Positions 2,920 through 39,074 of a stretch of DNA of 64,000 nucleotides are shown here, piece by piece (position 1 is the stretch's first letter; each line of letters begins with the position of its first letter). Under the pieces are notes generated by a model that saw only the letters and a list, made by a program, of their open reading frames with translations, had not been told where the DNA came from and did no database searches. The stretch covers positions 34,731 to 98,730 of the forward strand of contig JAJEHF010000002.1 in assembly GCA_022823865.1 (NCBI GenBank), read 5' to 3'. Source of the stretch: Bryobacterales bacterium. GTDB lineage: Bacteria; Acidobacteriota; Terriglobia; Bryobacterales; UBA6623. A program made the position numbers and the translations under genes.

Positions 2920-5058
2920 ATGCCTCGACACGCCTACCTGGGATCCCTCGCATTGATACTCTGCCTCGCCGGAGCCTCTGCGCCCAGCGCCAGCGCCGGA
3001 CCCGTCTCGGGCACCGATCTGCTTGGATCCTCCGAGAACACGAGCGACTGGCTGATGTATGGCCGCGACTACCACGCGCATCGTTACGTCGAACTCGACC
3101 AGATCACGCCGGATAACGTCGACCGGCTGCACCCGGCCTGGGTGTTCGCCACCGGCGGCGAGAATCGCGGCCTGCAAGCCACGCCGTTGATCCATGAGGG
3201 AGTGCTGTACCTCTCCGCGGACGGCTCGCGCGTGTTCGCGATCGACGCCAGAACGGGTGCCAAGAAGTGGGGTTACGATCCCGAGCTGTCTTCCGAGAGC
3301 GAGCGAGTCTACTGCTGCGGCTCGATCAATCGCGGCGTGGCCCTACTGGGCGATCTCGTTTACGTCGGAACGATGGACGCGCGCCTCGTTGCCCTCGACA
3401 AGCAGACCGGAGAAGTCGCCTGGGAGACACAGGTGATCGACTGGCGACAGGGCTACAGCATCACGGGCGCGCCCTTGGTGGTCAAGGACATGGTCCTCAC
3501 GGGTGTCGCCGGCGGCGAGTTCGGAATCCGCGGTTTCGTGAAGGCGTTCGACGCCAGCTCAGGTGAGCTGCGGTGGACGGCGTACACCATCCCGGGTCCG
3601 GGCGAGCCAGGCAACGAGACCTGGCCCGGGGACACGTGGAAGCACGGCGGGGCGCCAACTTGGACCACGGGCGTCTACGATCCGAACCTGGACCTGGTCT
3701 ACTGGAACACCGGCAACGCGGCGCCGTGGAACTGCCAGGTCCGCAAGGGCGACAATCAATGGTCGGCAGCCACGGTCGCGCTCAGGGCGGACAGCGGCGA
3801 GATCGCCTGGGGCTTCCAGTACACGCCGTGGGACTGCTGGGATTACGACGCAGTCAGCACGCCGGTGCTGGCCGACCTCGAGCTTGAGCGGCACGGGCCC
3901 GTCAAGGCCCTGTTCCATCACGACAAGAACGGATTCTTCTACGCCCTGGATCGCACCAACGGAAAGTTCCTCTATGGCGAGCCGATCGTGCCCGGCATCA
4001 CCTGGGCGCGGGGCTTGGACCCGGAGACCGGCCGACCGATCGTCAATCCAGACATGGTGGCCGAGTCGGGCGGGCCGGAGGTCGGCCCGATCATCCCCAG
4101 CCTGGAGGGCGCCATCGACTGGCAGCCGCTGTCCTACGACCCCGAACTCAAGGTCCTGTACTTCATGTCCAACCAATGGGCTATGGGCTACAAGTTCTGG
4201 GAGGAAGGCACGTTCCAGCCTCCGACGAACGGCGAGTGGTACTTGGGCGCGGACTACCAGCAATACCTGACCACCGACGAGCCCGGCAATTTCCTTGCCT
4301 TCGACGTCGTGGAACGCAAGATCCTGTGGCGCCAGACCAGCCCAGCGCCGTTCTGGGCCGGATCGGTGGCGACCTCTAGCGGCTTGGTCTTCACCGGCGA
4401 CATGCGGGGCTATTTCATGGCCCTGGACGCACGCACGGGCGACGTGCTGTGGCAATTCCAGACCGGCTCGGGAATCATCGGAAGCCCGATCACCTACGAA
4501 CTCGACGGGATCCAATACGTGGCCGTGCCGTCCGGGGGCATCGGCGGCGACATGACCTTCTATTACACCGAGCCGCGCGCGGGGAACCTTTGGGTGTTCG
4601 CGCTGGACGGCGGCGGCCCCGCGCAGGTGGCCCCCGGCACGAACCTCACCACGCTCGAGGGCGGACTGCCGTACGTGGGCGAGCCGGGCCACACGCTGGG
4701 CGGCCGCGTCCTGGCCGGCTATGGCTTCGAGCCGACCGAAGGGGGAGAACCGATCCAGACATCCGGCCCGCCGCAGCCGTGGTCAGCCGAAGCGGCGGCA
4801 GCGGCAGATCTTGGCGGATCCTTGGAATCCCCGGAGGACCTGCAGCGAGTGACCTCGGTTTTTCGAGCCCGCTGCATCGGCTGCCACAAGGTAGGCGGGG
4901 GCAGCGGGCCGAACCTGTTCCGCACCAGGCTCTCTCCGGGCGAGTTTGTCGCGCGGGTGCTTCAGGGCGGCAACGGCATGCCGACATTTCAAGACGTCTT
5001 GAGCGACCGGGACATCCTCGAGATCCACGCGCTCGTCGCCGCGCGGGACCGGCCCTGA
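2920..5058 (+). CDS. quinohaemoprotein PQQ-dependent alcohol dehydrogenase (methanol/ethanol family with C-terminal cytochrome c domain)
   Basis: ORF 2794..5058 trimmed to ATG 2920 (signal MPRHAYLGSLALILCLAGASAPSASA). It has propeller W-motifs, the vicinal disulfide VYCCGSINRG, the active-site stretch WDCWDYDAV and the C-terminal haem site CIGCH. Confidence 0.9.
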   Translation: MPRHAYLGSLALILCLAGASAPSASAGPVSGTDLLGSSENTSDWLMYGRDYHAHRYVELDQITPDNVDRLHPAWVFATGGENRGLQATPLIHEGVLYLSADGSRVFAIDARTGAKKWGYDPELSSESERVYCCGSINRGVALLGDLVYVGTMDARLVALDKQTGEVAWETQVIDWRQGYSITGAPLVVKDMVLTGVAGGEFGIRGFVKAFDASSGELRWTAYTIPGPGEPGNETWPGDTWKHGGAPTWTTGVYDPNLDLVYWNTGNAAPWNCQVRKGDNQWSAATVALRADSGEIAWGFQYTPWDCWDYDAVSTPVLADLELERHGPVKALFHHDKNGFFYALDRTNGKFLYGEPIVPGITWARGLDPETGRPIVNPDMVAESGGPEVGPIIPSLEGAIDWQPLSYDPELKVLYFMSNQWAMGYKFWEEGTFQPPTNGEWYLGADYQQYLTTDEPGNFLAFDVVERKILWRQTSPAPFWAGSVATSSGLVFTGDMRGYFMALDARTGDVLWQFQTGSGIIGSPITYELDGIQYVAVPSGGIGGDMTFYYTEPRAGNLWVFALDGGGPAQVAPGTNLTTLEGGLPYVGEPGHTLGGRVLAGYGFEPTEGGEPIQTSGPPQPWSAEAAAAADLGGSLESPEDLQRVTSVFRARCIGCHKVGGGSGPNLFRTRLSPGEFVARVLQGGNGMPTFQDVLSDRDILEIHALVAARDRP

Positions 5059-5066
5059 CCGCAGCC

Positions 5067-6212
5067 ATGTACGACGCCATCGTCATCGGCCTGGGCGGGA
5101 TGGGCAGCGCGACGCTGTACCACCTGGCGCGGAGCGGCTGCAGGGTCCTGGGCCTGGAGCAGTTTGAGATCGGCCACGCGATGGGGTCGTCCCACGGGTC
5201 GACGCGCATCATCCGGCTGGCATACTCCGAAGGCCCGGAATACGTGCCCCTGCTGCGAGCGGCGTACCGCTACTGGCGAGAACTAGAGAGCGCGGCAGAC
5301 TTGGACGAGCCGCTGCTACACGTAACGGGCGGGCTCGATATCGGACCGGAGGGCAGCTGGACCGTGGAGGGCTCGAAGAAATCATGCCTAGAGCACGGGA
5401 TCGAGTTCGAGGAGCTGGGCGGTGCGGACGTCAGCCGGGAATTCCCCGGATGCCGCCTGCCCGCGTCGATGAGGGCGATCTACCAGCCCGACGGAGGCTA
5501 TCTCATGTCGGAGGCGGCCATCCAAGCCCACATCGCTGGCGCCACTAGCGCGGGCGCACAGGTCCGCTCCGGTACGGAGGTGGCCGGCTGGAGTCGACAG
5601 GAATCCGGGTTGCGGATAGAGACGCCTACGGAAGCGTTTGAGACCAAGCGCGTAGTCGTCACAGCCGGACCTTGGATCGGAAGACTGTGCCCCGCACTGC
5701 GCCACTATTGCCAACCGGAGCGGCAGGTCATGCTATGGACGGACCCGCCAGCTCCCGACCGCTTCAAGCCCGAGCGCTTTCCGGTCTTCATCCTAGAGTC
5801 GCCGCTGGGGCGCTTCTACGGGTTCCCCGACCACCGCGGCCAGGGCTTCAAGATCGGCAAGTTCCACCACCTCAGGCAGCGCGTCGAGGATCCAAGCGGC
5901 ATGGACCGCGCTTGCCAGCCGGAAGACGAGGCTGTCTTGCGCGAGGGCATCGCGCATTACTTTCCCGGAGCGGACGGGCCGACCAGCAGAGCGGCTGCCT
6001 GTATCTTCACCAACACGCCGGACGGCCACTTCATTCTGGATCGCCTTCCGGGCTGCGAGGACGTGTTCGTCGCTGCGGGATTCTCCGGACATGGCTACAA
6101 GTTCTGCGGCGTAGTCGGCAAGATCATGGCCGACCTCTGCCAAGGCCGCTCGCCGGCATGGGACATCGACCTCTTCCGCCTCAGCCCTCGGCGGTGGGCA
6201 GGCCGCGCTTGA
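5067..6212 (+). CDS. FAD-dependent amine oxidase, SolA/MSOX (N-methyltryptophan / sarcosine oxidase) family
   Basis: ATG 5067 inside ORF 4449..6212. MYDAIVIGLGGMGSATLYHLA is a dinucleotide fold. GSSHGSTRIIRLAYSEGPEYVPL and GFSGHGYKF match MSOX/SolA hallmark stretches. Confidence 0.85.
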   Translation: MYDAIVIGLGGMGSATLYHLARSGCRVLGLEQFEIGHAMGSSHGSTRIIRLAYSEGPEYVPLLRAAYRYWRELESAADLDEPLLHVTGGLDIGPEGSWTVEGSKKSCLEHGIEFEELGGADVSREFPGCRLPASMRAIYQPDGGYLMSEAAIQAHIAGATSAGAQVRSGTEVAGWSRQESGLRIETPTEAFETKRVVVTAGPWIGRLCPALRHYCQPERQVMLWTDPPAPDRFKPERFPVFILESPLGRFYGFPDHRGQGFKIGKFHHLRQRVEDPSGMDRACQPEDEAVLREGIAHYFPGADGPTSRAAACIFTNTPDGHFILDRLPGCEDVFVAAGFSGHGYKFCGVVGKIMADLCQGRSPAWDIDLFRLSPRRWAGRA

Positions 6213-6315: not shown

Positions 6316-7767
6316 ATGACGCTCGATCCGCGGTTTCACCCGCGCCCGCGTCGCCCTGTCTCGCGCAGGGAGATGCTGCGCACGACCTCGACCGGGTTCG
6401 GGATGCTGGCCCTGGCCGGCCTGATGGCAGATCCGGCCTACGCCGGCCCCGCGCAAGAGGCCGGCCAGCAGGCGCCCCATTTCGAGCCGAAGGTCAAGAG
6501 CGTCATCTTCTGCTACATGTCCGGCGGGCTCTCGCACATCGACTCGTTCGACCCCAAGCCGCGCCTGGCCAAGGAAGCCGGCCAGCCGATGCCGTTCGAG
6601 ACGGCGCGCACGATGTTCAACCAAGACGGCAACATCATGCCGTCCCCGTGGGACTTCCACCGCTACGGCGAGTGCGGCGCCCCGGTCAGCGACCTCTTCC
6701 CGCACATCGCGACCTGCGTCGACGACATCGCCATCGTCCGCGGCATGACGGCGAAGTTCATGGAGCATGCGCAGGGCAATTTCTACTTTCACTGCGGGCA
6801 GCCGTTTACCGGCTTTCCATCCATGGGCGCTTGGGTGACCTACGGACTGGGCAGCGAGTCGAAGGATCTGCCCGGCTTTGTCGTGATCGGCACCGGCGGC
6901 ATCCCGCTGGGCGGAATCAACATGTTCAGCAGCGGCTTCCTGCCCGCAGAGCACCAAGGCTCGATGCTCTATCCGGGCGCCGAAGAGCCGCTGGCGAACA
7001 TCAAGCCGACCGAGGCAGACTCGAAGCAGCGCCGGCGGCTGGACTTTATTCGCTCGCTGGACTCGCTATACCTCGACCGGACCGCCCATGACCCCGATGT
7101 GGAGGCCGCTGTCAAGAACTACGAGACCGCCTACCGCATGCAATCGGCAGTGCCGGAATTGGTCGATCTCAGCGGCGAGACCGAGGCGACCCGCAAGCTC
7201 TACGGGCTGGACTCGACTTTCCCGCCGAAGCGCGACTACGCCCTGCAGTGCCTGACCGCCCGGCGGTTGATCGAGCGCGGCGTGCGGTTTGTCGAACTGA
7301 CCATGGTGGACGGTCGCAATCGCGGCACGGGCAACTCCTCGAACCCGTGGGACCAGCACACAGACCTGATCCTGGGGCATGGCCGCAATGCGTTCGCCGT
7401 CGACCAGCCCGTGGCCGCGCTGCTCCAAGACCTCAAGGCGAGAGGGCTGCTCGACGAGACGCTGGTGATCTTTTCCGGAGAGTTCGGGCGGACGCCCTTC
7501 GTGCAGGGCACGAACGGCAGGGACCACAATCCGTTCGGCTTCAGCCTGTGGCTGGCCGGCGGCGGAATCAAGGCGGGGACGACCTACGGCGCGACCGACG
7601 AGTACGGCTACCACGCGATCGAGGGCATCCGCACCGTGCACGACCTGCACGCCACCGTGCTGCACCTGCTCGGCATCGACCACACAAAGCTCTCCTACCG
7701 GTTCGGCGGACGAGACTTCAGGCTGACCGACGTGCATGGGCACGTGATCGACGAAGTTCTCTCCTGA
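6316..7767 (+). CDS. DUF1501 domain protein (sulfatase-like fold) with Tat-type signal
   Basis: SRREMLRTTSTGFGMLALAGLMA is a twin-arginine leader. The body (FCYMSGGLSHIDSFDPKP ... GRDHNPFGFSLWLAGGG) is typical DUF1501. Confidence 0.85.
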   Translation: MTLDPRFHPRPRRPVSRREMLRTTSTGFGMLALAGLMADPAYAGPAQEAGQQAPHFEPKVKSVIFCYMSGGLSHIDSFDPKPRLAKEAGQPMPFETARTMFNQDGNIMPSPWDFHRYGECGAPVSDLFPHIATCVDDIAIVRGMTAKFMEHAQGNFYFHCGQPFTGFPSMGAWVTYGLGSESKDLPGFVVIGTGGIPLGGINMFSSGFLPAEHQGSMLYPGAEEPLANIKPTEADSKQRRRLDFIRSLDSLYLDRTAHDPDVEAAVKNYETAYRMQSAVPELVDLSGETEATRKLYGLDSTFPPKRDYALQCLTARRLIERGVRFVELTMVDGRNRGTGNSSNPWDQHTDLILGHGRNAFAVDQPVAALLQDLKARGLLDETLVIFSGEFGRTPFVQGTNGRDHNPFGFSLWLAGGGIKAGTTYGATDEYGYHAIEGIRTVHDLHATVLHLLGIDHTKLSYRFGGRDFRLTDVHGHVIDEVLS

Positions 7768-27726: not shown

Positions 27727-27802
27727 GGGCGCGTAGCTCAATTGGTAGAGCAAGTGACTCTTAATCACTAGGTTCGGGGTTCGAGTCCCTGCGCGCTCAC
27801 CA
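27727..27802 (+). tRNA. tRNA-Lys (anticodon CUU), CCA encoded
   Basis: Hand-folded cloverleaf: acceptor GGGCGCG/CGCGCTC, D arm GCTC-AATTGGTA-GAGC, anticodon arm AGTGA-CTCTTAA-TCACT, T arm CGGGG-TTCGAGT-CCCTG, discriminator A, then CCA. Confidence 0.93.
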
Positions 27803-28032
27803 CTCCAAGATCGGGCAATGCGCGACCCGCTTGCGCTTCCACACGGCGGCCTGGCGCCCCTCCAGCGCATTGAAGCCACAACGCCATCGCAGCGTCGCCG
27901 GGCCGGCACGCGAGCGGCCTAGTGGCGCTTGCCCGATGGAGCGGGAATCCGTCCCGTTCACCAAGGCTTCGCGCCCGCCTGTAGCAAAATCCTATGGTTT
28001 CTCCACAGGTGCGCCTAAGCTGTTTAGCTCAA

Positions 28033-30471
28033 ATGTCATCCCTGTGCCTCCGCCTCCTAGCCGCCTCGGCTATAGCCATTCTTGCAATCCCCGGGTCGGC
28101 ACAGACGACGGGCACCCTTGCCGGAACCGTTTCGATGAAGGAGACGGGCAGCCCGATGCACGGCGCGAACGTGCTCATCGTCGAGCTGGGCCGCAGCATT
28201 CTCTCCGACGACGACGGAGGATTCGAATTCGACCGCGTTCCGCCCGGGACATACCATGTCGTTGCCCATCTGGACCACATCTTCACGGAAGCCGCAAAGA
28301 CCGTACAGGTAGAGTCCGGCCGCGCGGCATCGGTCGATTTCCTCCTTGCACTGGTCACCGACCGGTACGAAATCACAGTCACCGCGTCGGAGCTCCACGA
28401 GACGACTTTCGAGTCCTTCCAGGATGTCGAGTCTCTGGATGCCTATGACCTGGCCGAAGGAACGGCCATATCGCTGGGCGAGGCGCTGGACCACCAGGTC
28501 GGGACCGGAATCGCAAAGCGCAGCTTTGGCCCTGGCAGTTCGCGGCCGATCATCCGGGGATTCGACGGCGACCGCGTCCTAGTCATGGAGGACGGCATCA
28601 GCACCGGAACTCTGTCGTCACAGTCCGGCGACCACGGGGAAGTCGTGAACGTTGGGCAGCTGGCAAGACTTGAGATCGTGAAGGGGCCCGCGACGCTGTT
28701 GTACAGCGGCAACGCGATGGGAGGCACGGTCAATGCGATCAGCCGCCACCACGAGCATCACCCCCATCCACACGAAGGCTTTCGAGGATTCCTGTCGGGT
28801 TCAGGCGGGACTGCGAATGCGCTGGCGGGAGGGAATGCGGGCTTCGAACTCGGAGTCGGGAGGACGATGCTCTGGGGCCACGGCGGAGGGATTCGCACAG
28901 GAGATTACACGGCGGCGGGACAAGGCCAGATCTACAATTCCCGGTCGGAGCTCATGAACGGAGGGGGCGGGTTCGGCTGGTACGGGAAATCGATGTTCCT
29001 CACCGCTGAAGCGAGGGTCGACCGTGGCGACTCCGGAGTTCCCTTCGCTCAGGAGTTCCACGCGCACGGGCATGAGGAGGAGGACGACCACGACGACGAA
29101 GACGACGACCACAAAGAGGGCGAGGACGAAGACGAGGACGAAGATCACGACGAAGAGGAAGAAGATCACGAGGAGGAGGAGCTCGAGCGAGTCTCCCTCC
29201 AGAGCCGTCGCACAAGCTACCGGGTGACGTGGGGCCTGCAGAATCTCGATGGACCTGTCGAGAGCTTCGACCTCAAGCTGAGCTACGTCGACTGGAACCA
29301 TGACGAGATCGAGCACTTCGCGGATGGCGAGTCGGCTATCGGGACGATGTTCCACAACAATCGGTTCACCTATCGCGGGGTGTTCGAACAAAGACAGCGG
29401 GGACTGCTGTCGGGTCGGTTCGGCGTCTGGGGTGTTGACCGCGCCTACGAGGCCACGGGCGAGGAGGCACTCTCCCCGCCAGTCGACCAGAACGGGCTCG
29501 CATTCTTCGCCCTGGAAGAGCTGGACTTCGAACGATTCAAGATCCAGTTCGGGGGACGCATCGAGACACAGCGCTACAAGCCCGCGTACGCGGAACGCGA
29601 AGGCCACGACGAGGAAGAGGAAGAGGGAGGAGACCACGCCGAGGGCGACGAGGGCGAGGGCGAGGAGGAGGACCACCACGAAGAGCGGGAGCCTCCCGAT
29701 GCAGTCGATCGGGCCTTCACCGGAGGCTCGGCCGCGATCGGCATCCACGCCGATACCTGGCAGGGAGGGGCGTTCGTAGCCAACTTCGCCAGAAGCTTCC
29801 GCGCACCGTCGCTCGAGGAGCTGTACAACTTCGGACCACACGCCGGAAACAGGGCATTCGAGATCGGCAATCCCGGCCTGGCTGCCGAGACCGGAAACGG
29901 AATCGATGTCTCGTTGCGACACAACGAGGGCCGTGTCCGCGCCGAATTCAACGTCTTCTACTACGACTTCGACAACTTCATCTTCCCGTTCTCCACCGGC
30001 GAGCTGGTTGACGAGTTCCTAGAGATCGAGTACACGCAGCGCAACGCCCGTTTCACCGGCGCAGAAGCGAGCCTCGGGATCGACCTGAATGACGTTCTTC
30101 GCCTGAACCTCGGCATGGACTATGTCGATGCGAAGGACACCGATACCAACACGTACCTGCCTCGGATCCCGCCCTTGCGCGGGCGCATAGGCTTCGACCT
30201 TCGCAAGGGCGGCTTCCGCCTGTCCCCGGAATTTGTGATGGCAAGCGAACAGAGCCGGACGTTCACGGGCGAAACCGCGACACCCGGGTATACGGTCGTG
30301 AACCTCAAGGCCGCCTACACCGTCGCCCGCCAGCACTTGGCACACCAGTTCGCGGCCGAAGTGTTCAATATCGGGGACCAGCTCTACCGGAACCATTCGT
30401 CCTTCATCAAGGACCTGGCCCCTGAGATCGGTCGAGGCGTGCGGTTTACGTATACCGTGCGATTCTTCTGA
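28033..30471 (+). CDS. TonB-dependent receptor with N-terminal CarboxypepD_reg domain and His/Asp/Glu-rich insertions
   Basis: ATG 28033 gives signal MSSLCLRLLAASAIAILAIPGSAQ. It has a carboxypeptidase-regulatory-like fold (GTLAGTV...GTYHVVAHLDH), a plug (RPIIRGFDGDRVLVMEDG) and the terminal ...RFTYTVRFF. Acidic/His inserts lie at 28747-28776, 29059-29187 and 29593-29700. Confidence 0.88.
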   Translation: MSSLCLRLLAASAIAILAIPGSAQTTGTLAGTVSMKETGSPMHGANVLIVELGRSILSDDDGGFEFDRVPPGTYHVVAHLDHIFTEAAKTVQVESGRAASVDFLLALVTDRYEITVTASELHETTFESFQDVESLDAYDLAEGTAISLGEALDHQVGTGIAKRSFGPGSSRPIIRGFDGDRVLVMEDGISTGTLSSQSGDHGEVVNVGQLARLEIVKGPATLLYSGNAMGGTVNAISRHHEHHPHPHEGFRGFLSGSGGTANALAGGNAGFELGVGRTMLWGHGGGIRTGDYTAAGQGQIYNSRSELMNGGGGFGWYGKSMFLTAEARVDRGDSGVPFAQEFHAHGHEEEDDHDDEDDDHKEGEDEDEDEDHDEEEEDHEEEELERVSLQSRRTSYRVTWGLQNLDGPVESFDLKLSYVDWNHDEIEHFADGESAIGTMFHNNRFTYRGVFEQRQRGLLSGRFGVWGVDRAYEATGEEALSPPVDQNGLAFFALEELDFERFKIQFGGRIETQRYKPAYAEREGHDEEEEEGGDHAEGDEGEGEEEDHHEEREPPDAVDRAFTGGSAAIGIHADTWQGGAFVANFARSFRAPSLEELYNFGPHAGNRAFEIGNPGLAAETGNGIDVSLRHNEGRVRAEFNVFYYDFDNFIFPFSTGELVDEFLEIEYTQRNARFTGAEASLGIDLNDVLRLNLGMDYVDAKDTDTNTYLPRIPPLRGRIGFDLRKGGFRLSPEFVMASEQSRTFTGETATPGYTVVNLKAAYTVARQHLAHQFAAEVFNIGDQLYRNHSSFIKDLAPEIGRGVRFTYTVRFF

Positions 30472-33621: not shown

Positions 33622-34413
33622 ATGCGGCTACTGACATCCATCGCACTGCTCGCGGTGATTCCGGCCATCCTCAGCGCTGCGCGGACCCACGAGACCAACC
33701 CTATGAGTTCGCCGGAGGACTTCGAGGAGGGCCGACGACTGTATCGCATCAACTGCGGGGTCTGCCACGGCATGGAGGGCAAGACTGGACGCGGCTCCCG
33801 CTTGGCGCGTCGCAGCTACCGCCATGGCAATGCCGATGCCGCCCTCTTCGACCTGATCGAAGGCGGAATCCCGGGCACGGACATGCCCGGACTGTGGCTT
33901 GACGAGGATGACATCTGGAGAATCCTCCTGTTCGTCCGCACGTTCGCGGAGAAAGCCAGCGAGGTCTGTAACGCGAGCGGCGACGCGGCCGCCGGAAAGC
34001 GCGTCTTCGACTCGCAGGGTTCGTGCCTGGCCTGCCACACCGTCGGGAGTCGCGGCGGCCGGCTCGGCCCGGACATGTCGTTCGCGGGCGTGCAGTACAC
34101 CGACCAGCAACTGCGCGATGCGCTGCTGGAGCCCTCGCGCGAGGTGACCGGCCGTTACGAGACCGCGAGACTTGTCACAGCGGAAGGCGAACGCGTCGAG
34201 GGTGTGGTGATGAACGAGAACAGCTACAACATCTTCGTCATGGACCGTTCCGAGAACATCCGGTCGTTCCGCAAAGCGGAGCTTCGATCGCTCGATCTCC
34301 CGGAGGAATCGCTGATGCCTGCCTATGGGGACCTGCTGAGCACTGCAGATCTCGAAAACCTGATCGCCTACCTGTGCTCGCTGCAGGGGCCGGCCGAGGA
34401 GGTCGCGCAGTGA
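33622..34413 (+). CDS. dihaem c-type cytochrome (Planctomycete/Verrucomicrobia-type haem-binding domain)
   Basis: Signal MRLLTSIALLAVIPAILSA. Two CxxCH sites (CGVCHGMEG and CLACHTVG). The stop overlaps the start of the downstream PQQ-ADH. Confidence 0.85.
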   Translation: MRLLTSIALLAVIPAILSAARTHETNPMSSPEDFEEGRRLYRINCGVCHGMEGKTGRGSRLARRSYRHGNADAALFDLIEGGIPGTDMPGLWLDEDDIWRILLFVRTFAEKASEVCNASGDAAAGKRVFDSQGSCLACHTVGSRGGRLGPDMSFAGVQYTDQQLRDALLEPSREVTGRYETARLVTAEGERVEGVVMNENSYNIFVMDRSENIRSFRKAELRSLDLPEESLMPAYGDLLSTADLENLIAYLCSLQGPAEEVAQ

Positions 34414-36023
34414 AGACCCTGCTATTGCGATGGATGCTCCCGTCGGCACTGCTCTGCGCCGCTGCCGCGGCGGGAGAGGTGACCTATCAGGACCTGCTGA
34501 ACGACCCGAACGTAGCATCCGACTGGCTGAACTATCACGGGGGTTACGCCGGGCACCGGCACAGCCTGCTGGACGAGGTGAACCGCTCGAACGTCGAGTC
34601 CCTGCGACTGCAGTGGGCCTTCCAGGAAAAGATCGCTGAGAAGTTCGAAGTCACGCCCATCGTCCATGACGGAATCATGTACATCACTGTCCCGCCAGGC
34701 GATGTCTACGCGCTAGACGCGGAGACCGGGGCCCGGCTGTGGCGGTATTCCAGGCGCCTGCCCGCCAAGCTGATCGCATGCTGCGGGCTCGTCAACCGCG
34801 GTCTGGCGATCCTGGGCGACCGGCTGTTCATGGCGACCCTGGACGCCTACACTATCGCGCTGGACCGCAAGACGGGGCGCCTGCTGTGGGAGACGGAACT
34901 GATCGATTACTCCCTAGGCTATTCGGGCACGCTCGCGCCCTTGGTGGTCAAGGACATGGTCATGGTCGGCACGGCCGGAGGCGAGTACGGCATCCGGGGG
35001 TTTATCGACGCCTTCGATGTCGAGACCGGAGAGCGCCGCTGGCGCTTCTACACCGTCCCGGGCCCGGGAGAGTTCGGCAACGACACTTGGTCCGGAGACT
35101 CGTGGAAGACTGGCGGGGCCTCGATCTGGATCACCCCCAGCTACGACCCCGAACTGAACCTCGTCTACTGGGGAGTGGGCAATCCGGGGCCGGACTGGAA
35201 CGGCGATGTGCGCCTGGGGGACAACCTGTTCTCGGATTCCGTGGTCGCCCTGGACGCGGACACCGGCAAGCGCAAGTGGCACTTCCAGTTCACCCCGCAT
35301 GACGTCCATGACTGGGACGCCACGCAAGTCATGGTGCTGATCGACCGGGAGTACCGAGGAGTGGAGCGCAAGCTGCTGGTGACCGCCAACCGGAACGGCT
35401 TCATCTACATGCTGGATCGCGAAACGGGCGAGTTTCTCAAGGCGACGCAATTCGTCAAGCAGACCTGGGCGGTCGGGATTTCCGAAGAAGGCCGACCGAT
35501 TCGGCGGCCGGGCATGGAGCCGAGCGCCGAGGGCATCGAGGTGTACCCGGCGGTGGCCGGCGGCACGAATTGGATGTCTCCTGCCTACAGTCCAGACACG
35601 GGCTTGCTGTACGTCTCTTGCCGCGAAGGCAGCAGCATGTACTTCAAGGGCGAGACCGAGTACCGGCCCGGCACCCGCTACTGGGGCAGCATGTTCGTCA
35701 ACGAGTCCACCATGGGCGAGTGGTACGGCGCTGTCCGGGCATTCCATCCGGTGACTGCCGAGAAGGTCTGGGAGCACAAGCTCTTCCAGCCGGTGTGGGC
35801 CGGATTGCTCTCCACGGCCGGCGGCTTGGTGTTTGCCGGAGGCAGCGGTGGCTTCTTCAAGGCGCTTGATTCCGAATCGGGCGAGGAGCTGTGGCGAATC
35901 AACCTCGGAGCGTCGATCCTTGCCAGCCCGATGACGTACGAGGTCAACGGCCGCCAGCTGGTTGCGGTTGCCTCCGGCGGCGGGATGTTCGTGTTCGCGC
36001 TGCCGCAAGAATCCGCGCCGTAG
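34410..36023 (+). CDS. PQQ-dependent alcohol dehydrogenase (methanol/ethanol family, no haem domain)
   Basis: GTG 34410 (GTGA overlap with the cytochrome c stop) gives signal VKTLLLRWMLPSALLCAAAAAG. DWLNYHGGYAGHRHS, the vicinal disulfide LIACCGLVNRG and the active-site stretch HDVHDWDAT. Confidence 0.9.
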   Translation: MKTLLLRWMLPSALLCAAAAAGEVTYQDLLNDPNVASDWLNYHGGYAGHRHSLLDEVNRSNVESLRLQWAFQEKIAEKFEVTPIVHDGIMYITVPPGDVYALDAETGARLWRYSRRLPAKLIACCGLVNRGLAILGDRLFMATLDAYTIALDRKTGRLLWETELIDYSLGYSGTLAPLVVKDMVMVGTAGGEYGIRGFIDAFDVETGERRWRFYTVPGPGEFGNDTWSGDSWKTGGASIWITPSYDPELNLVYWGVGNPGPDWNGDVRLGDNLFSDSVVALDADTGKRKWHFQFTPHDVHDWDATQVMVLIDREYRGVERKLLVTANRNGFIYMLDRETGEFLKATQFVKQTWAVGISEEGRPIRRPGMEPSAEGIEVYPAVAGGTNWMSPAYSPDTGLLYVSCREGSSMYFKGETEYRPGTRYWGSMFVNESTMGEWYGAVRAFHPVTAEKVWEHKLFQPVWAGLLSTAGGLVFAGGSGGFFKALDSESGEELWRINLGASILASPMTYEVNGRQLVAVASGGGMFVFALPQESAP

Positions 36024-38061: not shown

Positions 38062-38490
38062 CTACCGCAACGGGTTCTGCCACTCCAGACCATCAAACCG
38101 GGCGAAGTCACCATCGGTCGAGCAGAGAACGAGGCCGTGCTCGATGGCCAGAGCCGCCAGGTGGGCGTCGGGAACGAGATTCGCGCGGCCCTCCGCACTC
38201 GCCATGAGCGGAGCGAGCACATCCTGATGGCGCTCCGTCGGCAGTGGGACCCAGACCGACCGTGTCGCGAGCCATGACTCCACCTGCAGCCACGCGGTGG
38301 ACACCGCGGCGGGCCGATCGAAGATGCGCGGATTGCTGACAATCCGCACGAAGGCCAGCAGACTGGGCCACGGAATCCCCACGGGAGCGGCGGCATTGAT
38401 GCGGTCGTCCAACCACGTACGCGCCCGCTCGTGCTGCGGGAATGAAGCCACGTGCGCGTAGACGAGCAGGTTGGCGTCGACGAGGATCAC
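38062..38490 (-). CDS. vapC: PIN-domain toxin VapC
   Basis: GTG 38490 inside ORF 38062..38631. VILVDANLLVYAH ... PDAHLAALAIEHGLVLCSTDGDFARF. It has a 4-nt overlap with the upstream antitoxin. Confidence 0.85.
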   Translation of the reverse strand: MILVDANLLVYAHVASFPQHERARTWLDDRINAAAPVGIPWPSLLAFVRIVSNPRIFDRPAAVSTAWLQVESWLATRSVWVPLPTERHQDVLAPLMASAEGRANLVPDAHLAALAIEHGLVLCSTDGDFARFDGLEWQNPLR

Positions 38491-38735
38491 CGGAAATCCT
38501 CGCCTTCCGCGACGGCAAGTGCTTCGGCGACGTCGTCGAGGCTGCCAATCCGACAACGACCCAGATCCGCGGCCGGCGTCCTGTAGGCCGCCGGCTGGCC
38601 GGACGGAGCCGCCATGGCGCGCAGACCGCACCGCAGCGCCTCGTTCACGACCGCCTTGAAGCTCTGACCGCGCACCCGCTGCATTCGTTCGGCCAAGGCC
38701 GCCACGTCAGGGTCCAATGTCAATGTGGTACGCAT
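38487..38735 (-). CDS. vapB: VapB-type antitoxin
   Basis: 82 aa. The N-terminus MRTTLTLDPDVAALAERMQRVRGQSFKAVVNEALRCGL is typical of antitoxins paired with VapC. Confidence 0.8.
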   Translation of the reverse strand: MRTTLTLDPDVAALAERMQRVRGQSFKAVVNEALRCGLRAMAAPSGQPAAYRTPAADLGRCRIGSLDDVAEALAVAEGEDFR

Positions 38736-38736
38736 G

Positions 38737-38760
38737 CATCACATCATAGAAGATGTGATG
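38737..38760 (-). promoter_or_regulatory. candidate vapBC operator
   Basis: Perfect 9-bp inverted repeat CATCACATC-atagaa-GATGTGATG, starting 2 nt upstream of the vapB start codon. Confidence 0.5.
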
Positions 38761-38799
38761 TGTTGATGCTGATCGTTCGTGCCTGCTCACGCCGCGACC

Positions 38800-39074
38800 G
38801 CCTCGGCGCCGCCACGCTCGTGCCGCTCGCCAATGCCCGCGGGCAGGCCCTCGCCAACCGAATGCTTGCCCGCTCGGGCGGCAATCTCCTCTTCGAGAAA
38901 CAGGGCGTCCAGGGAGTGCCCACCTTCGCCGAAGCCGCCCAGTGCATGCTCGAACGGAAGCGCGACGGCTGGCGCAGTCGGTGGCATGCTCAGAACTGGT
39001 GGCGCAGCATGGAGCGGTACGTGTCCACTCGCGTCGGCAACCGACCCGTGTCCGAGGCGGATCGCGGAGCGTGA
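38800..39074 (+). pseudogene. tyrosine-integrase N-terminal fragment (remnant)
   Basis: ...ARGQALANRMLARSGGNLLFEKQGVQGVPTFAEAAQCMLERKRDGWRSRWHAQNWWRSMERYVSTRVGNRPVSEA matches the arm/SAM-like N-terminal region of phage-type integrases. It then stops, and no catalytic domain follows. Confidence 0.6.

Follow-up and report, generated by a model that had tools for sequence, protein, structure and literature searches.

Among the dehydrogenases that depend on pyrroloquinoline quinone (PQQ), only XoxF and the type 2b enzymes (ExaF/PedH) have been confirmed biochemically as lanthanide enzymes, according to a 2025 survey in ISME J (PMC11996626). The same survey finds the lanthanide motif in most or all members of 14 of the 17 PQQ-dehydrogenase families, and families thought to be Ca-only, such as 'ADH type 4' (ADH, alcohol dehydrogenase), to be heterogeneous (PMC11996626). 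In a 2026 preprint by related authors, quinohaemoproteins are named 'Type IV' and 15 clades of predicted lanthanide eight-bladed enzymes are described from weathered granite (10.64898/2026.07.10.737718). The present analysis concerns a gene that encodes a PQQ dehydrogenase fused to a cytochrome c domain, in a stretch of 64,000 nucleotides from a Bryobacterales bacterium (Acidobacteriota; GenBank assembly GCA_022823865.1, contig JAJEHF010000002.1), hereafter referred to as the window. Its product, the query of all comparisons below, is on balance best explained as a periplasmic lanthanide-type quinohaemoprotein alcohol/aldehyde dehydrogenase.

The described enzymes closest to the query differ from it in distinct ways. 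PedH/ExaF (type 2b of Keltjens; structures 6ZCV and 6ZCW) shares with it the propeller, the vicinal Cys-Cys pair, the Glu, Asn and Asp ligands, the D-x-D motif and a Gly before the ligand Glu, but has D-F-D where the query has D-Y-D, lacks a haem domain, relies on a separate cytochrome c and carries Arg in place of the query Lys336, at an identity of about 41-49%. Type II quinohaemoproteins (ADH-IIB 1KV9, ADH-IIG 1YIQ and the Comamonas QH-ADH 1KB0) are soluble periplasmic proteins and, like the query, single polypeptides made of a propeller and a C-terminal monohaem cytochrome c, with the CxxCH motif and the Met in GMP(S/T)F, and ADH-IIB also has Lys at the Arg position. However, their solved members are Ca2+ enzymes and ADH-IIB carries Thr (D-F-T) at the lanthanide column, where the query has Asp; in addition, the linker of the query appears to be much longer and holds a conserved segment of 42 residues, and its propeller lies outside their clade. 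XoxF (4MAE, 6DAM, 6OC5, 7O6Z) has the same D-Y-D, ligand set and Cys-Cys pair, but no fused haem, being served by a separate XoxG cytochrome and XoxJ; it carries Arg326, is matched by the query at an E-value of 1e-110 and belongs to another clade. The Ca-type enzyme ExaA shows D-F-S where the query has D-Y-D. Asp-type PQQ dehydrogenases with N-terminal cytochrome c domains resemble the query in combining the lanthanide-type Asp with a dedicated c-type cytochrome, and differ in that the cytochrome is N-terminal or separate, often dihaem and of the TIGR02603 domain type, in having Arg rather than Lys, and in their clade.

Domain layout and metal site

The open reading frame (ORF) of the dehydrogenase is intact and uninterrupted and ends at 5058 on the forward strand, with GTG at 2794 or ATG at 2920 as possible starts. 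The latter is the likely start codon, because homologues of 710-716 residues align from residue 1. The product passes the NCBIfam model TIGR03075 (PQQ-dependent dehydrogenase, methanol/ethanol family) with 597.6 bits against a cutoff of 480.05, and matches the Pfam families PQQ (1.2e-79) and Cytochrome_CBB3 (PF13442; 5.9e-12 at residues 640-702). The positions of all features are collected in Table 1. The N-terminus resembles a Sec signal with an A-S-A site, as judged by eye only; column identity in this region is low within the family (36%), and signal peptides are as a rule weakly conserved. The haem domain aligns weakly to that of ADH-IIB 1KV9 (phmmer E 5e-6). His656 of the haem attachment motif would be the proximal haem ligand and Met687 is the probable distal one.

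Propellers devoid of catalysis are expanded in Acidobacteria, and a cofactor-less 'empty quinoprotein' or another propeller of this kind was considered on account of a match to TIGR04528 (acido-empty-quinoprotein group A). At 406.6 bits, however, the match lies far under the cutoff of 650 for that model and the candidate was rejected; TIGR03075 is passed, and no variation is seen in any metal ligand, in the catalytic Asp, in the Cys-Cys pair or in the haem motif, so that such a reading has very little probability. The gene product is very probably a functional PQQ quinohaemoprotein dehydrogenase.

To compare the metal sites, the sequences of PedH, ADH-IIB, ExaA and the XoxF of M. fumariolicum SolV (XoxF-SolV) were rebuilt from the HMMER printouts of 6ZCV, 1KV9, 1FLG and 4MAE, respectively, and aligned with the query and 143 other relatives using MAFFT. 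At the columns of XoxF C104, C105, E172, N256, D299, Y300, D301 and R326, the query has C132, C133, E200, N266, D308, Y309, D310 and K336. At the same eight columns PedH has C, C, E, N, D, F, D and R, ExaA has C, C, E, N, D, F, S and R, and ADH-IIB has C, C, E, N, D, F, T and K. In the chain numbering of XoxF-SolV the motif WDSWDYDG begins at residue 295, so that the Asp residues of its D-Y-D are D299 and D301, described in the literature as the catalytic and the lanthanide-specific residue, respectively. In this enzyme class the disulfide of the vicinal Cys-Cys pair stacks on PQQ. Judged by this alignment, Asp310 and the Asp that binds the lanthanide in XoxF and PedH are homologous residues. 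Among the structurally characterised ADHs compared here, those with Asp at this column (XoxF, PedH) bind a lanthanide and those with Ser or Thr bind Ca; type II quinohaemoproteins of the Ca type have Thr, Ser or Ala at the XoxF-301 column, which is occupied by Asp310 in the query.

A preliminary description of this DNA had already pointed to the motif WDCWDYDAV, with gat tac gac at 3841-3849, and to a C-terminal fused cytochrome c with the sequence CIGCH. Both readings are borne out, the bases encoding Asp308-Tyr309-Asp310, and CIGCH being found at residues 652-656 within the PF13442 match at 640-702 and followed by the invariant Met687. It had allowed that the second Asp might turn out not to be homologous to the lanthanide ligand, and in the alignment this residue sits in the column of XoxF Asp301 and the PedH Asp. 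Its use of the extra Asp as the mark of lanthanide enzymes stands for XoxF and PedH (Asp) as against ExaA (Ser) and ADH-IIB (Thr), but does not extend to membrane glucose dehydrogenase, which has D-x-D as well.

The query (Gly199), PedH and XoxF have Gly immediately before the ligand Glu, where ExaA has Asp and ADH-IIB has Ala. In the diverse set of relatives, Asp stands at the lanthanide column of 95 sequences (with Glu or Asp at the ligand-Glu column), and 69 of these carry the Gly; of 28 sequences in which the lanthanide column holds Thr, Ser, Ala or Asn, only 3 do. The Gly199 signature agrees with a lanthanide-type site and lends it weak support, since the sequences compared are phylogenetically non-independent.

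Conservation and phylogenetic position of the family

The 120 closest 90%-identity clusters, which are 70-81% identical to the query, all have the PQQ plus PF13442 architecture and exactly one CxxCH each, and 119 of them carry the pattern P.D.WD.D. In a 65-sequence family alignment with a mean column identity of 69%, no variation occurs at C132, C133, E200, N266, D308, D310, K336, C652, C655, H656 and M687. Scanning a single genome for each GTDB species gave 158 stretches encoding a relative, mostly in Bryobacterales, Vicinamibacterales and 'Marinacidobacterales' and otherwise scattered in other phyla, some of them on short contigs. Among the 80 loci kept for examination, WD[CR]WDYD is retained in every one and an in-frame CxxCH in 78, and orthologues 97% identical to the dehydrogenase occur in three Bryobacterales metagenome-assembled genomes (MAGs). 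Given the figures for the clusters (119/120) and the loci (80/80), and the invariance of the ligand columns, the pairing of D-Y-D with the haem motif is not due to chance. The family is common, conserved and routinely annotated in public databases.

Conservation also extends to the linker of about 90 residues between the propeller and the haem domain, which is far longer than the linkers we take the solved type II quinohaemoproteins to have. Column identity in its segment 571-612 is 85%, rising to 97% at residues 590-599, on par with the propeller; the segment might act as a strap for docking or as a lid that covers the substrate channel. AlphaFold2 was run on the 65-sequence alignment, an input too shallow at 70-81% identity, and gave a model with a mean predicted local distance difference test score (pLDDT) of 69, in which the linker falls below 35 and is modelled as disordered; the model is adequate for fold matching and inadequate for haem docking or metal-site geometry. 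Matched against solved structures with Foldseek, it retrieved 6ZCW (PedH) at the top (E 5.3e-53), followed by three type II quinohaemoproteins over 730-747 columns spanning both domains. A HMMER search of PDB likewise placed PedH of P. putida (6ZCV) first, at an E-value of 1.3e-135, and after it, in this order, ADH-IIB 1KV9, XoxF-SolV 4MAE, other XoxFs, two quinohaemoproteins, ExaA and the MxaFs. Over the conserved columns of the propeller, identity is 49% to PedH, 47% to ADH-IIB and 44% to XoxF.

An exhaustive HMMER search over 1.84 billion 50%-cluster representatives identified 2,449 relatives of the dehydrogenase at E <= 1e-30. The nearest full-length relative outside its own family, designated P0121, is about 53-54% identical and all others are 36-47% identical; P0121 (586 aa) ends within the conserved linker and may be either truncated or genuinely without a fused domain. 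A neighbour-joining (NJ) tree was inferred from 460 propeller columns with 133 bootstraps, XoxF-SolV being the sole XoxF reference. The query family and P0121 are monophyletic in 133/133 bootstraps. Both the clade of PedH and ExaA and the bipartition that holds ADH-IIB together with at least 90% of the sequences combining Thr, Ser or Asn with Lys and a C-terminal haem exclude the query family, each again in 133/133. In a single unbootstrapped NJ tree, the family does not group with XoxF-SolV. As the NJ tree always splits it from both clades, the query family is placed in a separate clade, neither of the ExaF/PedH type nor a classical type II quinohaemoprotein, although by alignment it resembles the former in its metal site and the latter in its architecture and Lys336.

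The D-Y-D motif, which is exactly that of XoxF, could also be taken to suggest an XoxF-kind methanol dehydrogenase that has absorbed its XoxG cytochrome. Methanol and formaldehyde are among the substrates of some XoxF and ExaF enzymes (PMC11996626), and the oxidase of the SolA/MSOX family encoded next to the dehydrogenase would, going by its family name, free formaldehyde from N-methyl amino acids. Against this, the propeller is nearer to PedH and ADH-IIB than to XoxF and the tree shows no grouping with XoxF, the query has Lys336 where XoxF has Arg, and neither xoxJ nor C1-assimilation genes were found in the window; an XoxF origin is thus improbable.

The frequency with which the lanthanide-type Asp is paired with haem was surveyed among 50%-cluster representatives, using the 128 full-length sequences closest to the query. 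Asp occupies the lanthanide column in 98 of them, combined with a C-terminal CxxCH domain in 12, with one or two N-terminal CxxCH domains in 24 and with no cytochrome c fusion in 62; the classical combination of Thr with a C-terminal haem is present in 14. Asp is, therefore, paired with a fused cytochrome c in 36 of the 128 representatives. The preliminary description had called such a pairing unusual, a view that does not survive these counts together with the 158 genome matches, which show it to be common. Its accompanying remark that lanthanide enzymes lack a haem domain holds for those confirmed biochemically, as neither XoxF nor the type 2b enzymes ExaF/PedH are quinohaemoproteins (PMC11996626). 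The phylogenetic placement that it had proposed puts the query family in a clade of its own with P0121, outside the PedH plus ExaA and the ADH-IIB clades, a result to be read with the single XoxF reference in mind.

Several of the Asp-type sequences with a C-terminal haem fall within the classical quinohaemoprotein clade in the NJ tree. In phmmer comparisons, the haem domain of the query itself scores weakly, and at similar levels, against ADH-IIB and against cytochrome domains from other clades, both C-terminal and N-terminal ones. It is the propeller tree that suggests a haem fusion in the query family independent of the classical one.

Predicted mechanism and identity of the metal

Observation has established how the domains are arranged, that the ligands are homologous and invariant, and how the family is distributed, and a mechanism may be proposed on this basis. 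The enzyme would be exported by the Sec pathway to the periplasm as a soluble quinohaemoprotein, with PQQ bound in the propeller beside the Cys132-Cys133 disulfide and a metal coordinated by PQQ and by Glu200, Asn266, Asp308 and Asp310. A light lanthanide(III), and not Ca2+, is the most likely metal, because Asp310 occupies the lanthanide-specific ligand position of XoxF and PedH, where it would complete the higher coordination number that a lanthanide requires. With the metal acting as a Lewis acid on the C5 carbonyl of PQQ and Asp308 as the base, the substrate would give up a hydride to PQQ. The resulting PQQH2 would be re-oxidised by the tethered haem c (His656/Met687) in two one-electron steps. 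As in type II quinohaemoprotein ADHs, the electrons would then leave the haem for a soluble acceptor in the periplasm and enter the respiratory chain. A broad range of alcohols and aldehydes may serve as substrates, a guess made from the closest relative, PedH.

Mutagenesis and structures, as summarised in PMC11996626, have shown that lanthanide coordination by XoxF and the type 2b enzymes requires the Asp, the evidence for the PedH site being given in PMC5487730. As D-x-D is necessary in the enzymes tested and its sufficiency is unproven, lanthanide dependence stays a prediction, and a lanthanide is considered the somewhat more probable physiological metal of the dehydrogenase. Several observations weigh against this assignment. 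The membrane glucose dehydrogenase of the E. coli type has D-x-D and yet functions with Ca, Mg, Zn or Sr (PMC11996626). The query family groups with neither the XoxF nor the ExaF/PedH clade and hence lies outside the clades of proven lanthanide enzymes. No pqq, xoxJ/xoxG, lanmodulin-like, aldehyde dehydrogenase, C1-assimilation or recognisable lanthanide-uptake genes were found within the window. The docking of the haem domain, moreover, could not be judged owing to the low confidence of the AlphaFold2 model.

The first three of these observations also speak for a working quinohaemoprotein that uses Ca2+, or is promiscuous towards di- and trivalent metals, and in which the Asp is a trait of the lineage; Lys336 and the fused haem, common to the Ca-dependent type II quinohaemoproteins, agree with it as well. 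Against such an enzyme stand the invariance of the Asp in 80/80 loci and its presence in 119/120 clusters; in the solved ADHs that were compared, Asp (XoxF, PedH) goes with a bound lanthanide and Ser or Thr with Ca, and the Gly199 signature fits lanthanide enzymes. A Ca2+-using or promiscuous enzyme is accordingly regarded as rather unlikely, though it deserves to be kept in view, and the lanthanide-type quinohaemoprotein is preferred.

In the literature searched, which did not take in Keltjens 2014 and Huang 2019, no explicit description of a lanthanide-type eight-bladed quinohaemoprotein was found, nor any paper that brings together lanthanide, PQQ and 'cytochrome c domain'. Papers on lanthanides that mention quinohemoprotein use these proteins, in the portions of text available, as background only. 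The pairing of a lanthanide-type Asp with a built-in cytochrome c domain is common in public genomes. Chances appear evenly balanced that the family represents the first lanthanide-dependent quinohaemoprotein, i.e. a self-contained Ln(III)-PQQ-haem c enzyme that has its catalytic site wired to its own cytochrome by a family-specific conserved linker, with a wide distribution in Acidobacteriota and an origin separate from that of the classical Ca-type quinohaemoproteins. If this is true, rare-earth biochemistry would be extended to the quinohaemoprotein architecture, intramolecular electron transfer from an Ln-PQQ centre would become measurable within one protein, and the enzyme could be considered for electrodes based on direct electron transfer, a purpose that Ca-type quinohaemoproteins already serve. 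In ecological terms, it adds another abundant and conserved predicted lanthanide enzyme to the Acidobacteriota. The value of the finding is limited by the fact that surveys already predict most PQQ dehydrogenase families to be of the lanthanide type, and that the gene is common and routinely annotated; the family is an uncharacterised variant, combines two kinds of enzyme already known and would not surprise a specialist.

Genomic neighbourhood and a second PQQ dehydrogenase

Table 1. Positions in the window of the dehydrogenase gene, its domains and key residues, and other features discussed in the text
Feature	Position	Strand	Basis or remark
PQQ dehydrogenase gene with fused cytochrome c domain, 712 aa	2920..5058, stop codon included	+	ORF list, Pfam, TIGR03075
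Putative Sec signal peptide, residues 1-26 (MPRHAYLGSLALILCLAGASAPSASA, then GP)	2920..2997	+	Inspection: hydrophobic core, then A-S-A
Eight-bladed PQQ beta-propeller, ~residues 28-565	3001..4614	+	HMMER alignments to PedH, ADH-IIB, XoxF, ExaA; Foldseek
Vicinal Cys132-Cys133	3313..3318	+	Columns of XoxF-SolV Cys104-Cys105; invariant in 65-sequence alignment
Glu200, predicted metal ligand, preceded by Gly199	3517..3519	+	Column of XoxF Glu172
Asn266, predicted metal ligand	3715..3717	+	Column of XoxF Asn256; invariant
Asp308-Tyr309-Asp310, gat tac gac, in W304-DCWDYDAV-312	3841..3849	+	Columns of XoxF-SolV Asp299, Tyr300, Asp301
Asp310, gac	3847-3849	+	Column of XoxF Asp301
Lys336, where XoxF, PedH and ExaA have the PQQ-contacting Arg	3925..3927	+	Column of XoxF Arg326
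Family-specific conserved segment, residues 571-612, core GHTLGGRVLAGYGF	4630..4755	+	Column identity; between propeller and haem domain
Class I monohaem cytochrome c domain, C-terminal, residues 640-712	4837..5055	+	PF13442; ADH-IIB alignment
CIGCH haem c attachment motif, residues 652-656	4873..4887	+	C652, C655, H656 invariant
Met687 within NGMPTF, probable distal haem ligand	4978..4980	+	Invariant; aligned to GMPSF of ADH-IIB
Flavin adenine dinucleotide (FAD) oxidase like N-methyl-L-tryptophan oxidase (SolA/MSOX family)	5067..6212	+	NF008425, Pfam DAO
DUF1501 gene	6316-7767
tRNA-Lys(CTT)	27727-27802	+
TonB-dependent receptor	27994-30471	+	N-terminal carboxypeptidase-regulatory-like domain
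Dihaem cytochrome c gene, CGVCH and CLACH	33622-34413	+	TIGR02603 domain; directly 5' of second dehydrogenase
Second PQQ dehydrogenase, H-D-V-H-D-W-D	34410-36023	+	TIGR03075 595 bits; Arg at PQQ position
Asp codons of D-W-D in second dehydrogenase	35310-35312 and 35316-35318	+
Short ORF	38442-39074	+	Only the central phage-integrase domain
ORF, 1153 aa	60520-63981	-	No Pfam match

The gene order around the dehydrogenase is that of an ordinary piece of chromosome and comprises a gene for a dienelactone-hydrolase-family protein upstream and, downstream, the SolA-like oxidase, DUF1501, an ammonium transporter and PhoH-YbeY-Era. The SolA-like oxidase scores 432 bits with NF008425 against a cutoff of 257 and starts 8 nt past the stop codon of the dehydrogenase. 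The junction sequence shows no consensus promoter or terminator between the two genes, and they are probably co-transcribed. An operon in which a cytoplasmic, demethylating oxidase adjoins a periplasmic PQQ enzyme is an odd one; a link between the two through formaldehyde is conceivable.

A gene for a SolA-like oxidase follows the dehydrogenase in 26 of the 80 related loci, down to about 63% identity, and a DUF1501 gene does so in 20. Clustering of conserved neighbours revealed no universal neighbour among the 80 loci, these two recurring most, with sulfatases, a gluconolactonase-like protein and an amidohydrolase in subsets.

The second PQQ dehydrogenase of the window is preceded by a gene for a dihaem cytochrome c, the TGA stop of which overlaps the GTG start at 34410 (GTGA). 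Along its whole length, this cytochrome shows homology (E 4e-45) to the N-terminal domains found in fused relatives, P0131 among them, and by this homology the locus at 33622-36023 is a split form of the N-terminally fused family. Split and fused forms thus coexist and show that Asp-type enzymes of this superfamily are routinely paired with a c-type cytochrome of their own, whether fused to them or encoded alongside, in line with the explanation preferred for the query.

The only TonB-dependent receptor of the window, which is preceded by the tRNA gene, has only sub-threshold matches to Zn and haem receptors, and nothing indicates that it imports lanthanides or PQQ. Genes for sulfatases are found repeatedly among the related loci (PF00884, checked in the two loci L001 and L007), as are genes for a GFO/IDH/MocA oxidoreductase and a gluconolactonase-like protein, and a fucosidase and a tannase are encoded further along the window. 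The gene content suggests a lifestyle of sulfated-glycan degradation. Several MAG names, for example RHO3_bin, APA_bin and SB066x_bin, resemble those given to marine-sponge metagenome bins. The 1153-residue ORF near the end of the window is without a Pfam match, and the short ORF with the phage-integrase domain is possibly a remnant.

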